Below, piece by piece: positions 1,662 to 6,914 of a DNA stretch of 64,000 bases. The position numbers were made by a program, and so were the translations under genes. A model generated the notes under the pieces. It had not been told where the DNA came from. It saw only the letters and a list, made by a program, of their open reading frames with translations, and ran no database searches. Position 1 is the first letter of the stretch, and the number at the start of each line of letters is the position of its first letter. The DNA comes from Marsupella aquatica (lineage: Eukaryota; Plantae; Marchantiophyta): positions 14,538,645-14,602,644 of the forward strand of contig OZ316893.1 of assembly GCA_973895155.1 (NCBI GenBank), written 5' to 3'.

Positions 1662-4600
1662 ATGGCAGAAGCTGCAGCGTTGGAGGGAGTGAGGCAATGC
1701 AAGACAGACATTGACAAGTATGTCTACCTGCGGATCTTGCAAGCTAAGGCTCCGGAGCTCTTCTATTTGGTGCTCATCAACAATGCGCAGGAGCTGCTTC
1801 CGGTGGTGTACACGCCCACGGTAGGGGAGGCGTGTTTGAAATACAGCCATTTGCCAATTAAAATGCACGGGCTGGTGATCCGGCCCAGCGACAAAGGCAA
1901 CGTGTTGAGCAAGCTCAAGCAGTGGGCAGGCAAGAACACAATCCGCGTCGTGGTGGTGACCGATGGAGAGCGAATTTTGGGATTGGGAGATCTCGGATTC
2001 AATGGCATGGGCATCAGTGAGGGCAAAATTCTGCTCTACACAGTCATGGGGGGCGTCAATCCGGCGCAGTGCATGCCCATTGTGCTCGATGTCGGGACTA
2101 ACAATCAGACTTTCCTAGACGACCCTGAGTACAAGGGCATCCACGAGAAACGACTCCGTGGACCGGCGTACGATGAGCTCGTCGACGAGCTGCTCACGGC
2201 TGTTCGTGGGTGGAATGCGCATACTTTACTGCAGTTCGAGGACTTTGGTAACACCAATGCGTTCCGCCTACTGGAGAAATACGGTCCCATTCAGTGCTGC
2301 TTCAATGACGATATCCAGGGCACTGCCTGTATCACTCTCGCGGGACTACTGTCCGCGTTGCGAATCACTAGAAAACCGTTGAAGGATCAGAAGATACTCT
2401 TCCTAGGTGCTGGGGAGGCTGGTACCGGTATCGGGAAGCTGATTGCCAAGGCGATTGAGACGGCGAGCACTCTCACAGAAAAGGAGGCGCTTGGAAGATG
2501 TTTTTACATGGACTCACACGGTCTCGTGGTCGCTTCCAGGACTGATCTGGCGGAGCATAAGCTGCCTTTTGCTCATGATGTACCCCACCAAGCCACGCTT
2601 CTCGATGCAGGTCGGTCTGAATCTGCAAAATTGAGTGCCATCTCTTCGGTCTTTTCAATCTTCGGTGTCGCCGTTTTGTTCAGATCGAGGGAACATCTTT
2701 CTACTCAATTCGTGCTCTGTTGCACCTAATCTCTCTTCCGTGGCATCGTCCTCTCGCATTCCTCTTTCTTTCGTTGGCTGAAGCTGTCATGACTGCTTTC
2801 CCTCTGAAGTCTGGAGGGCTTTCCGCTCATCTTCCTTTTGCTAGCTACCGATTGCCGATGTACAATTTCATATCGGGAGGCCTCTTCTTCCGGAGGTTTC
2901 TGATCCTCAGAGATGCGATTGTTCCATTCTTTGATGCAGTGAAGGAACTGAAGCCGACGATGCTTATCGGAGTGTCTACCATCACCGGTGCCTTCTCTAA
3001 AGACGTTGTTGAACTGATGGCGGAAATAAACGACAGGCCCATCATATTCCCGCTGTCAAATCCCACATCCAAGGCGGAATGCACATACAAGGAGGCTTTT
3101 GAGTGGACCAAAGGGAAAGTTGTGTTTGCAAGTGGCAGTCCCTTTCCATCTTTGAAGGGTCCAGATGGGAATCTTTACCATCCGGCACAAGCGAACAATG
3201 CATACATATCCTCTCCATTATCTGTTTTCTTCAATTTCTCATGGGGTTGTTGTATTGATAGTATAGGCACACGAATGTTTAGCTCGAGCTTTCATCAGCG
3301 TGACTGGTACAAAGAAAATTAGTTTTTGAGCGGGTTATGCGTCACTTCTAAGTTCTCCTTAACTGCAAGCTTACGTCTTCGGACCCATCGGACAAGCAGC
3401 TGTGTTGACCAATTGCAAGCATATTACTGACGAGGTGTTCACCGTGGCGGCGAACACCTTAGCTGGTTTGGTTCCCGAGGGAACTCTTGAATCTGGCATG
3501 CTCTTTCCGACTATTTCAGAAATGAAGGTAAACTTCTCTTTCGCTTAAAGCTTGTTTCTGTGAGTTTTCTGTTAGTAGAATCGGTTGAATCTGACGCCTG
3601 GAAATTCATTACTTTCAGACTTTAGTCGTGCCGCTTATAACCGGGATTGCTGAGTTCATGGTGAGCTCGGGGCTGGGTACAAAACCCGAGGGCGTAACGT
3701 CATGGGAGTCGTACATAAAGAGCAAAACATATGCGCCGAAGATCTCCGGCCAATCCTTGGCAGTGAGGGTGGCACCTACTCCTGTTCCGGAGGTGCATCA
3801 CGAGGAAATGGAAGAGCTAGTAATGCTTCGCCATATGGAGTCCGACATCCGGCGCTACCTATTCCTTCGATATTTGCAGGTACGTACTTCTCTCATGGCA
3901 GCTCTTTCAGGTCAGTTTTGAATCTAGACAATAGTCTGGCGCATCAGTGCGCTCTCGAAGTGAGCCCAAGTATGCAAGCAACGATACTATCTGGCTCCCA
4001 AACTGATGCCTTGATCCCTCGACATTCTACCCAACGTGCAACAACAGGATAGCCAACCGAATACCTTCTGGAAGCTCATCATCAACAATGCACAAGAGCT
4101 TCTGCCCTTTGTCTACACACCTACGGTGGGAGAGGCTTGTCAGAAGTACAGTAATTTGCCCATCAAGACACGAGGCTTGTATATAAAACAAGAAGATAGT
4201 GGAAAAATTATGGAGAAGCTGAAGGCTTGGAAGCATCAGGAGATCCAAGTGATTGTTGTCACCGATGGAGAGCGAATTCTTGGTCTCGGAGGTAGGTTCG
4301 GCTATCTTAAAGAAACTGGAGATCTGTTGATTGTCTGTTGCTCCCACTATTTTTCCCCAGAAACCCACCTTGTGATTTGAGAGCAGTGGGCACTTCTGAT
4401 TGAAAATTGTCCAAGCGCAATTTGCTTCTTCAGTCCAGTAGAGAACATGTTTACTCGCTTGGGTTAAGGACTATATAATCAGATGTGGGCGAAACAATGC
4501 AATGGTTTGGATCGTGGCCTGACATATATCATGAGTTTTTGCTGCTTGTTTAAGAATCCTCCCCTTGCTCCATCGGCAAAATTGGAAATGTTCGTGTTAT

Positions 4601-6914
4601 CAAAATTGTATATCCTGTAAGTTTTAAATGTCTTATGGTGTCACCTGCTGAACTTCTGACCGACAGATTTGGGAGCTGGTGGGATGGGCATCAGTGAGGG
4701 TAAGATAATTCTGTACACTGTTATGGGGGGTGTGGATCCCACCAAATGCCTACCAGTGTGTTTGGACGTGGGAACTAATAGGGAAAGCCTTCTTGAAGAC
4801 CATGAGTACATCGGTGTACGTGAAATGCGGTTGCGGGGGGAGCCATATGATGCACTTATCGAGGAATTTGTTACCTCGGTGAAGAAATGGCAGCCTAACG
4901 TTCTTTTACAGGTATATTTCCGTAGTTGATGCTTGAATATGAAATTTAGGAAAACAAGCGGTGTTTAACAAGTTCATAATTTGGAGTTCGTTCTGGTCAA
5001 ACTTGCAGCTAGAATTTATCTTGAACCATTTGCTCCGAAGTCATGGAGAAGGAGCTAATCGACTGTGTGAACTTTCCATACGCATGTAGCGCTGCTTGAG
5101 TCCCGACATGCCAAGCTTTTGAAATTAGAAACGACTACGTGTTATGTTCTGTTGCGCACTTTGTGGCTTCGGGAGATTTTCATTGAAAATGTGTTCACTC
5201 TGTGCTCTGCTGATGTCACCTGGCAATTTCTCGTTTCTGCACAGTTTGAGGACTTCGGCAACACGAATGCATTCAGAATTTTGGAAACGTATCGGAACAA
5301 AATATTAAGCTTCAATGATGACATTCAGGGTACTGCCTGCATCACTCTGGCAGGAGTTTTGTCTGCGCTCCGGGTCACAGGTATATGACAGTCATCTTCT
5401 TAAAAGTAATCAGTATTAACCGACTGTGAGTATGCTAGTTCTCAGAGTTGACCCAATTGTGATGGCAATTCGGCTTAAGACTGAGTTTTCACAAGATACT
5501 GATACTCAGTTAAACTTTGTTCTGAAAAGTGAGTTCAAACACTTCTTCTGGTCGACATGTGATTGTTGCTCAGTTTTGTTTCTTTCCTCCCAATGGCAGG
5601 AAAACCATTGAAAGATCAGAAGATCATCTTTCTGGGAGCAGGAGAGGCAGGCACTGGTATTGGGAAGCTTATTGCCCTTGCTCTTGTTGATAAGTATGGT
5701 ACCCCACTGGAGGAAGCTTTGAAAGTGTGTTTCTTCGTAGATTCGAAAGGTCTCGTATGCAAGTCTCGTACAGATTTGCAGCAGCACAAATTGGAATTCG
5801 CTCATGATGTACCCTTCCAGCCCAACCTTCTCGCTGCTGTGAAAGCTTTGAAGTAAGTAATCTTGTCATTTTAGTGATTTTCAATTCTAGTGTATACCAC
5901 AACTAAGTGGCAAAAAGATTTAGGGTTGACACTCTAGATATTAGCCATTTTTGGACATCCTTGTTGAAGATTCACACCTTTAATTATAGTCGCAAATAGC
6001 ATGAGGTTCGATCGGAACGCTAGATTTCTGACAATTTGGTATCTGTTTTGAAGACCCACCATTTTGATTCGATCGGAACGCTAGATTTCTGACAATTTGG
6101 TATCTGTTTTGAAGACCCACCATTTTGATCGGAGTCTCAACTATAACTGGAGCATTTAACAAGGAAGTGCTGGACACCATGCACCAGAACAATGAACGTC
6201 CTGTGGTCTTTCCCCTCTCTAATCCGACATCAAAAGCAGAATGTACATTCGAAGAAGCGTATCGGTATACTGGAGGCTCTGTTGTATTTGCCAGTGGCAG
6301 TCCTTTCCCGCCATTCACGACAAATGACGAGCGAACTTTGTACCCAGCTCAATCCAACAACGCTTATATCTTTGGTCCAATTGGGATGGCAGCAGTTCTG
6401 ACGAAATGTAAGAGTATCCCTGAAACTCTGTTCCTGAAAACTGCGGAGCTCCTAGCGGAGAAAACGCCAGAAGCTCGACTAGATTCAGGAATGCTGTTCC
6501 CGGCATTTTCCGACATGAAGGTGAGTAACGTTCAGATGTCTACTTAGACTTCCCTGTAAGTTGACGAGGAACTCCTTCTGAATCGAGGCAATGATTGTTT
6601 CGTGTTTCCTACAATGCTCTCTTTACTGTAAGGCCCAGGTAGCCGAAAGGCATGCTGTTGACTGAGCATTTGTAACCACCAGCGTGGAGAGTTAAGGCCT
6701 CTGTTGGGTTCTTACTTATCCAACCAAGTTAGGGTTTTCTTCCCATCTAAACAATGTTCTGGATTGTAATTATGTGCAGGAGGTCGCACCCCAGCTAATT
6801 GCTGGCATATCTGAATACATTGTTAAGGTCGGTCTCGGAGAGGAACCCAAGGAGGTGGCCAAACTGGGTTGGTTGAAATACGTGCAGGAACAAATGTACA
6901 CCGGTCCTAAATGA
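1662..6914 (+). CDS. Tandem two-module malic enzyme (NADP-ME-like), ~1015 aa, 10 exons: 1662-2610, 2940-3205, 3375-3527, 3619-3879, 4048-4291, 4667-4911, 5245-5380, 5600-5852, 6115-6520, 6780-6914
   Basis: Both modules carry [53 protein letters not shown] and NNAY motifs. Exon phases join into one frame (3048 nt including TGA at 6912-6914). There is no stop between the modules: exon 3619-3879 encodes the end of module 1, a linker and the start of module 2. Confidence 0.88.
3206..3374 (+). other. U12-type (minor spliceosome) AT-AC intron in malic enzyme module 1
   Basis: 5' site ATATCCTC at 3206, branch point TCCTTAAC at 3356-3363, 3' end AC at 3373-3374. Removal restores [10 protein letters not shown], matching the uninterrupted [10 protein letters not shown] of module 2. 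Confidence 0.9.
6007..6128 (+). repeat. 61-bp perfect tandem duplication spanning a 3' splice site
   Basis: TTCGATCGGAACGCTAG...TTTTGAAGACCCACCATTTTGA occurs at 6007-6067 and again at 6068-6128. Confidence 0.9.

Follow-up and report, generated by a model that had tools for sequence, protein, structure and literature searches.

A single gene of Marsupella aquatica encodes two class I malic enzyme modules in tandem, and the resulting 1,015-aa chain probably folds its two modules, each predicted to be an active NADP-dependent enzyme, into a tethered, slightly asymmetric dimer, probably in the cytosol. [quoted passage not shown] An earlier note on this DNA proposed that such an architecture had not been described, and this was borne out in that we found no description of a two-module malic enzyme in the literature searched.

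Gene structure and splicing

When spliced in silico and translated, the ten exons (Table 1; positions refer to the window, the whole 64-kb stretch of DNA that was analyzed) yield 3,048 nt and 1,015 aa between positions 1662 and 6914 with the terminal stop as the only one, confirming the single open frame read in the earlier note and its stop-free exon bridging module 1, linker, and module 2. In run X1, possibly the source of the window itself, one 4,399-base contig matches positions 1671 to 6036 with 0 differences. A contig of another organism (run X4) covers positions 3655 to 4471 and thus crosses the module junction; among the 40 of 145 differences listed, three fall in exon 4, of which, when translated by hand, two are silent and one replaces Ile with Leu. 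Module 1 has no transit peptide, and its start matches those of the Calypogeia fissa and Marchantia proteins. No further malic enzyme gene lies within the 64-kb window, the neighbors of the gene there form no metabolic gene cluster, and positions 1 to 9000 gave no Rfam matches.

Table 1. Features of the two-module malic enzyme gene in the window
Feature	Start	End	Strand	Content
GA dinucleotide run	1610	1661	+	directly 5' of start codon
Exon 1	1662	2610	+	start codon and module 1, aa 1-316; opens at helix A3 of domain A
Exon 2	2940	3205	+	module 1, aa 317-405
Intron 2	3206	3374	+	AT-AC, U12-type (minor spliceosome); donor ATATCCT at 3206, branch point TCCTTAAC at 3356
Exon 3	3375	3527	+	module 1, aa 406-456
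Exon 4	3619	3879	+	module 1 end (to ~3741), linker, module 2 start (from ~3808)
Linker	~3742	~3807	+	aa 498-519, 22 aa, within exon 4
Exon 5	4048	4291	+	module 2; catalytic Tyr566, Arg619
Exon 6	4667	4911	+	module 2; catalytic Lys637
Exon 7	5245	5380	+	module 2; metal-binding FEDF and NDD motifs
Exon 8	5600	5852	+	module 2; GAGEAG, Ser800, Lys801, Lys815
61-bp exact tandem duplication	6007	6128	+	6007-6067 = 6068-6128; exon 9 branch point and acceptor doubled
Exon 9	6115	6520	+	module 2; without AT-AC intron where module 1 has one
Exon 10	6780	6914	+	module 2 end and stop; C terminus GPK

The exons do join in frame, as had been claimed, but the join depends on two features that had been overlooked, namely, the noncanonical AT-AC intron 2 and the downstream one of two identical exon 9 acceptors. 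Intron 2 matches the U12-type AT-AC consensus in its donor (ATATCCT), in its branch point (TCCTTAAC), and in ending with AC; the branch point sequence occurs three times in the 64 kb on both strands, once at 19 nt before the intron 2 acceptor. Retention of this intron leads to a stop 38 codons inside it, and ten database gene models of relatives read into the equivalent intron. Because of the AT-AC intron, the two-module layout has remained hidden in split database gene models. Such split models, found in Marchantia (AXG93_392s1490/1500 and AXG93_702s1040/1050) and Riccia sorocarpa (R1sor_022529/022530), would fit two neighboring genes or an assembly or annotation artifact, but this explanation is largely refuted and scarcely credible, as the splits fall at the AT-AC intron within module 1 and not at the module junction, whole two-module Marchantia models of 1,019 and 1,023 aa exist, the junction lies inside one exon and is crossed by contigs of two organisms, and transcript-derived proteins of relatives span it.

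The 61-bp duplication at the exon 9 acceptor is genuine, with a depth of the 61-bp unit in run X1 of 35 compared to ~17 elsewhere, i.e., doubled. Splicing to the upstream acceptor (exon from position 6054) brings a stop after residue 845 and truncates module 2. Since the two acceptor copies do not differ, nor do their branch points, and run X1 bears out the duplication, much of the mRNA might be spliced at the upstream site and either give a chain of 845 aa whose module 2 is broken or be degraded. We regard this as very improbable, however: exons 9 and 10 show no defects, module 2 shares 90% identity with that of C. fissa and diverges no faster than module 1, and neither a 61-base gap nor a joint appears among the rows listed for runs X3 and X4 (other organism), where one record each fits two places, weakly suggesting that the duplication is shared and tolerated.

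Active sites, cofactor, and probable pairing of the modules

Modules 1 and 2 are identical in 301 of 498 columns (~60%). As the earlier note stated, the active-site motifs are kept in both, with VYTPT, ERILG, EGKI, FEDF, NDD, and GAGEAG each present twice at a spacing of 515 to 516 aa. Both modules carry the active-site residues of class I malic enzymes (catalytic Tyr112, Arg165, and Lys183; metal ligands Glu255, Asp256, and Asp279), Tyr50 and Tyr566 aligning with position 112. The 91%-identical C. fissa protein P0001 has two Pfam malic (PF00390) domains, each followed by Malic_M (PF03949), and its model has the four-domain class I fold (VIA Z 45 to 51, rmsd of 1.8 to 2.4 Å to human, pigeon, and maize chains over ~490 to 500 aligned residues, both modules being represented). 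The NADP determinants of malic enzymes are Ser346 and Lys362 (PMC9801130 and PMC5958461), and in alignment with human ME1 their equivalents are Ser285 and Lys300 in module 1 and Ser800 and Lys815 in module 2. Both modules are thus predicted to be active NADP-dependent malic enzymes; a search of the literature found no biochemical characterization of any member of the subfamily to which they belong.

The modules had been called complete, and this is not supported. They match human ME2 only over residues 63 to 566 and 61 to 562, and domain A, which spans residues 23 to 130 (PMC9801130), is missing its N-terminal ~40 residues in each.

The two sites might also have divided their labor, with one module doing the catalysis and the other being less active, acting as a sensor, or shifted in its cofactor. 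His replaces Lys347 in module 1 of M. aquatica, of four C. fissa proteins, and of P0362 (P0360 and P0015 were judged by eye to be identical to the latter), degenerate modules occur in Chlorokybus (module 1) and in the second Closterium gene, Closterium B (module 2), and the ~60% identity that the modules retain is compatible with such a partnership. We nevertheless consider it improbable, as neither module has lost any catalytic or metal residue in the liverwort proteins or in those of Chara, Netrium, and Closterium A, modules 1 and 2 diverge at similar rates, and a change of Lys347 shifts the Km of ME1 less than twofold (PMC9801130).

Within one chain, module 1 probably pairs with module 2, as two separate subunits do in the malic enzymes studied so far. 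The dimer interface of maize NADP-ME includes the C-terminal loop as well as helix A3 (PMC13100509), the helix with which each module here begins, and the distance between them could thus be bridged by a short tether. The C-terminal half of the linker (aa 509 to 521) is conserved like the core in Marchantia (13/13), a hornwort (11/13), and Netrium (9/13) and poorly conserved in Chara (2/13) and Chlorokybus (3/13). The spacing of the modules is 508 to 541 aa in 13 of the 15 streptophyte proteins measured, M. aquatica included, the exceptions being a gapped Riccia model and Chlorokybus, and 5 of the 12 differences fixed between modules 1 and 2 among six liverwort proteins fall within the first 69 residues (P = 0.017, for a region picked after seeing the data). 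These three observations, with the linker conserved from Zygnematophyceae to liverworts and the fixed differences concentrated in domain A, argue against an alternative in which both modules are active but unpaired within the chain, either as flexibly tethered monomers or by pairing across chains into rings or chains of dimers. We hold this alternative to be unlikely, although several findings speak for it. While AlphaFold gives each module the class I malic enzyme fold (pLDDT of 91.6), the mutual arrangement of the two is not fixed, the pTM values of 0.53 and 0.56 being about as expected for two independently placed halves, and the linker (residues 500 to 518) has a pLDDT below 50 and is unstructured in both models. 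In addition, His51 of human ME1 is part of a strong dimer contact (PMC3528742), and its equivalent falls in the segment absent from both modules. Finally, single-module headless relatives without a tether occur in many chlorophytes, and head loss alone therefore does not require a tether. The modules may, as the earlier note had supposed, adopt a covalent pseudo-dimer geometry and differ in kinetics. We discarded an origin of the linker from the lost head on the basis of a profile test, in which the linker scored 2.0 bits at best, with shuffled sequences reaching up to 6.2 and true heads exceeding 100.

A headless green-algal subfamily and an old duplication

The earlier note had taken canonical plant NAD(P)-MEs as its reference, which is not supported, as the gene belongs to a separate green-algal malic enzyme subfamily, which we define here by an xxEGK motif, the absence of the head, and a single clade. 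That clade includes the M. aquatica modules and has an SH-aLRT support of 100 in trees with outgroups of 4 and 2 rows from which canonical plant enzymes were absent. The N-terminal NKG...GLLPP head pattern was found in 267 of 296 IPxGK proteins and in 4 of 135 xxEGK proteins, all four being loose Closterium-type matches, with 36 proteins without the anchor motif excluded. The M. aquatica protein has neither the single module nor the head and IPxGK motif of canonical cytosolic or plastid NADP-MEs of land plants, and the lack of its N-terminal ~40 residues is evidently inherited from the green-algal subfamily. Members such as Chlamydomonas MME3 (Cre14.g629700), Coccomyxa EIE27596, Scenedesmus "ME6," and a Mantoniella protein also have xxEGK and no head and show 53 to 61% identity in the searches, but they are single-module proteins, and many end in SKL, SRL, or AKL or bear N-terminal extensions. 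With an SKL-type C-terminal tripeptide as the PTS1 consensus, we found a peroxisomal-type signal in 58 of 105 single-module subfamily members and in 1 of 15 streptophyte two-module proteins that passed the filter; the M. aquatica protein ends in GPK, while Marchantia MARPO_0051s0068 ends in SRL. The subfamily also hints that green algae and Marchantia may have a malic enzyme in their peroxisomes. For MME3, the listed location is chloroplast/cytosol (PMC11548211), and plant NADP-ME is placed only in cytosol and plastid in the available part of PMC12178909.

The two-module layout is not confined to M. aquatica. Among 492 proteins fetched, 17 are streptophyte two-module proteins, from Calypogeia, Marchantia, Riccia, Chara, Closterium, Netrium, and Chlorokybus. 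The database orthologues MARPO_0051s0068 and MARPO_0003s0094 of Marchantia, CBR_g3078 of Chara, and CAM6091174.1 of C. fissa share the layout at 64 to 91% identity and are named merely "malate dehydrogenase (oxaloacetate-decarboxylating)" or hypothetical; the two MARPO identifiers were not mentioned in the literature searched. Transcript-derived evidence comes from a Netrium Trinity open reading frame marked complete (1,037 aa, two modules), from one of the hornwort Nothoceros that crosses the module junction, and from a 1,016-aa two-module protein, which we count here because its 3,884-base contig is too short for the introns of the M. aquatica gene. In a 50%-cluster search, 5 of the 150 listed clusters had two stretches, none of them a full tandem. 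No moss or vascular-plant protein was named among the 120 best matches of each of three homologue searches (~8,000 candidates scored in each), many matches being unnamed, which provides a lead toward a possible loss of the two-module enzyme in these groups. Six genus names looked for in supplementary text of PMC5958461 did not occur there, though its gene list may exist in another form.

The internal duplication proposed by the earlier note holds in that this is one gene duplicated inside, but the event is old and streptophyte-wide rather than particular to this genome. Introns 3 (module 1) and 9 (module 2) have equivalent positions and equal phase. A quick tree of 31 rows (18 of 49 were excluded, i.e., both Chlorokybus modules, Closterium B, two outgroups, three Logan rows near streptophytes, and most chlorophytes) recovered a module 1 clade with an SH-aLRT of 91. 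AU tests rejected the pairing of the two M. aquatica modules with each other (P = 8e-72) and the grouping of all liverwort modules (P = 3e-4), while module 2 monophyly was not rejected (P = 0.26). Chlorokybus module 1 forms a long branch of unsure placement. These phylogenies favor a single duplication that preceded the divergence of Chara and land plants.

Relation to known malic enzymes

Class I NADP-MEs of known structure (maize C4-NADP-ME, 5OU5 and 9E6M; human ME1, 3WJA and 7X11; pigeon, 1GQ2) share with both modules the fold (Z 45 to 47, rmsd of ~2 Å), the catalytic Tyr, Arg, and Lys, the metal ligands, GAGEAG, Ser346, and Lys362, at 43 to 46% identity in structural alignments. They are single-module subunits that form noncovalent dimers or tetramers (PMC13100509), whereas the M. 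aquatica chain has two modules, each without the first ~40 domain A residues and with ISEGK in place of IPVGK and FGP in place of FPG. Malic enzymes are well studied, and their oligomeric state drives their regulation and was remodeled in C4 evolution (PMC13100509). Here, nature offers a double enzyme on one chain, retained from before the arrival of plants on land, whose halves can be altered separately, so that coupling between sites can be tested directly, and Marchantia combines two such genes with genetic tools.

We can only speculate, and with some doubt, that these enzymes represent a third, overlooked malic enzyme lineage of green plants, which lost its oligomerization head, became largely peroxisome targeted in green algae, turned by duplication into a pseudo-heterodimer on one chain in land-plant ancestors, was kept by liverworts and hornworts under minor-intron control and lost from mosses and vascular plants, and whose two sites might cooperate across an asymmetric interface impossible in homo-oligomers.

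Two diverged units also act together in the alpha/beta hetero-oligomers of plant mitochondrial NAD-ME (PMC5958461). Those units are encoded by separate genes, with GAGSAG and without Lys362, in contrast to the one chain of M. aquatica with GAGEAG and Lys362; neither module has the GAGSAG motif or the loss of Lys362. MaeB, just as the M. aquatica protein, contains a malic enzyme inside a larger multidomain chain, but it has a class II fold with 21 to 24% identity, and its partner is a phosphotransacetylase domain instead of a second malic enzyme.

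Structure of the two-module gene and its neighbourhood

The ten exons join into one frame of 1015 aa whose sole stop is the terminal one, as the earlier note had claimed, and its placement of the junction between module 1 and module 2 inside the single exon 3619-3879 is likewise borne out, as is its naming of six motifs, each of which is present twice in the window protein. The two modules are identical at 301 of 498 aligned columns and share about 60% of their DNA, which argues that the duplication is old. A single contig from sequencing run X1, possibly the window's own source, covers 1671-6036 with zero differences, and a contig from run X4, which comes from a different organism, spans the module junction too. 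The closest named protein, P0001 from the leafy liverwort Calypogeia fissa, is 91% identical over its full length, so that the window likely belongs to a close relative. It is very probable that the gene gives a single two-module product, and the two-module malic enzyme is real and conserved.

A feature absent from the earlier note, like the AT-AC nature of intron 2, is that positions 6007-6067 are repeated exactly at 6068-6128, each copy carrying the exon-9 branch point and acceptor, and since depth over the 6007-6067 unit is doubled in X1, this duplication is real. If splicing used the upstream one of the two acceptors, the protein would stop at residue 845. Exon 1 (1662-2610) lacks four introns found at matching sites in module 2, and its GC3 is higher (0.65 versus 0.49).

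Features of the gene and its neighbourhood in the window
Feature	Position	Strand	Remarks
Two-module malic-enzyme gene	1662-6914	+	ten exons
Intron 2 (AT-AC)	3206-3374	+	ATATCCT start, AC end, TCCTTAAC 19 nt before end
DOG1-like gene fragments	9598-12264	-	PF14144, below curated cut-off
Two related non-LTR-type retroelement copies	14755-16146, 22758-26131		reverse transcriptase PF00078 in 22758-24926
Stretch similar to the DOG1-like fragments	29895-30557	+	no Pfam match
Ribonuclease T2 gene	38046-38858	+	
U5 116-kDa (EFTUD2/SNU114) gene exons	42797-45039	-	
Frame resembling Copia-type reverse transcriptase/RNase H	61161-61976	-	no Pfam match

Assignment of intron 2, in module 1, to the minor spliceosome rests on the consensus of that class. 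The split gene models of relatives are due to this AT-AC intron, and 10 of the 492 fetched proteins read through into it. The Marchantia and Riccia models read through into an AT-AC intron in module 2 and module 1 alike, so that the intron is likely older than the module duplication, its module-2 copy having been lost in the Calypogeia line. Two forms coexist in one liverwort-type data set: a 3884-base contig encodes a 1016-aa protein, and 4597-base contigs carry pieces of 419 aa and 615 aa broken at the AT-AC intron. We infer these forms to be the spliced and the intron-retained transcript, respectively.

Distribution and origin of the duplication

Two FNDDxQ motifs occur in 24 of the 492 fetched proteins, 17 of them streptophyte orthologues (6 from C. 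fissa, 4 from Closterium, 2 from Marchantia polymorpha, 1 each from Riccia fluitans, Chara, Netrium, and Chlorokybus, and 1 other); the remaining 7 comprise four cryptophyte-type, one butterfly, and two short proteins. A transcript ORF from the hornwort Nothoceros runs across the junction with its start missing and, as this and the Netrium sequence are Trinity assemblies, the fusion is seen at the transcript level in relatives. Named moss or vascular-plant proteins were absent from the best 120 of each of three length classes, and loss from these groups is a lead short of proof. P0374 (537 aa, Leptophrys vorax transcriptome) joins a Closterium-type module 1 start to a module 2 end and is likely prey RNA collapsed during assembly, and in P0010 and P0137 the hornwort-type module 1 carries an insertion of ~19 residues in the NADP-binding domain.

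A quick tree of 31 rows, with which a second tree of 49 rows agrees, unites all 24 streptophyte modules (SH-aLRT 99). The 12 first modules are a clade (91), and the second modules of Zygnematophyceae and bryophytes make up a group (98) that leaves the Chara second modules outside. The AU test rejected duplication within this species (p 8e-72) and within liverworts (p 3e-4) and did not reject a single clade of second modules (p 0.26). One duplication, earlier than the split between Chara and the land-plant line, is the simplest reading. An intron site common to both modules, after aa 456 and after aa 971 and in phase 0 each time, points to duplication at the DNA level.

Chlorokybus may share this duplication; its module 1 (P0007) is degenerate and long-branched, with several conserved residues gone. 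In a second Closterium gene (P0012, P0013, P0021), the first module is intact and the second has decayed. In two other Closterium proteins (P0128, P0129), the modules are 98% identical over the central 100 columns and 33-70% at the ends, a sign of gene conversion between them. The cryptophyte-type and butterfly tandems fall in other parts of the phylogeny, the two modules of each protein grouping with one another, and are thus separate events or artefacts. The former, from Rhodomonas abbreviata and relatives (P0133, P0135, P0009, P0011), keep their heads; the two module cores of P0133 are 100% identical over ~400 columns and the junction is alike in two data sets. They would reflect either a fusion that arose independently and underwent gene conversion, or an effect of assembly. 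The butterfly (Iphiclides) model P0008, marked partial, probably merges two neighbouring genes by annotation.

The literature searched, outside whose scope lay most subscription journals and bioRxiv supplements, gave no description of a two-module malic enzyme. The accessible portion of a family-wide phylogeny with three supplementary files (PMC5958461) contains none of the words Marchantia, charophyte, tandem, and peroxisome; it reports a long-branched green-algal cluster, which may correspond to the headless subfamily discussed below. The layout is apparently undescribed, and correctly modelled two-module proteins are already in public annotations, unnoticed. The reaction chemistry belongs to a known enzyme, and the novelty lies in the layout, in the headless subfamily, and in the targeting signals of that subfamily.

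Fold, and probable module pairing and location

AlphaFold folded both modules of P0001 (mean pLDDT 80.1 with 18 rows, 91.6 with 104 rows), and when the first model is laid over class I malic enzymes, its residues 1-502 match 63-566 of human ME2 and 516-1015 match 61-562. With domain A at residues 23-130 in the part of PMC9801130 available, ~40 residues are missing per module. The head pattern occurs in 267 of 296 IPxGK-type versus 4 of 135 xxEGK-type proteins, so the missing head is a trait of the xxEGK subfamily, a single green-lineage clade with Chlamydomonas MME3 among its members. His51, a dimer contact of human ME1, falls in the missing segment (PMC3528742, in part), which in maize holds helix A1 at the N-terminus together with sheets close to the tetramer interface (PMC13100509, in part). 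Ser346 and Lys362 are retained in both modules, for which NADP is therefore the predicted cofactor; position 347 in module 1 is His. At positions 67 and 91, those of the fumarate-site arginines, the modules have Ala/Lys and Glu/Ser.

Each module would most likely convert malate and NADP to pyruvate, CO2, and NADPH, and the two modules of a chain most likely pair with each other, an intramolecular dimer being somewhat favoured. This pairing is suggested by helix A3, which begins each window-protein module and in maize lies at the dimer interface adjoining the C-terminal loop (PMC13100509, in part), by the second half of the linker, whose conservation between Zygnematophyceae and liverworts matches that of the core, and by clustering of fixed module-1/module-2 differences, of which the first 69 residues hold 5 of 12 (post hoc p 0.017). 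Against it count a pTM of 0.53-0.56 with the linker unplaced, weak linker conservation in Chara and Chlorokybus, the existence of headless enzymes without a tether, and a comparison with the head that ruled out the linker as its remnant.

Lacking an N-terminal extension and ending in GPK, the window protein is presumably cytosolic. SKL-type C-terminal tripeptides (SKL, SRL, AKL, or similar; P0020-P0491) end 58 of the 105 xxEGK proteins whose C-terminus is whole versus 5 of 249 IPxGK proteins, a comparison biased by the many probably bacterial members of the latter set, although 55% is still far above chance; they suggest a putative peroxisomal malic enzyme in green algae. Among 15 filtered streptophyte tandems, the sole SKL-type end is the SRL of Marchantia MARPO_0051s0068.
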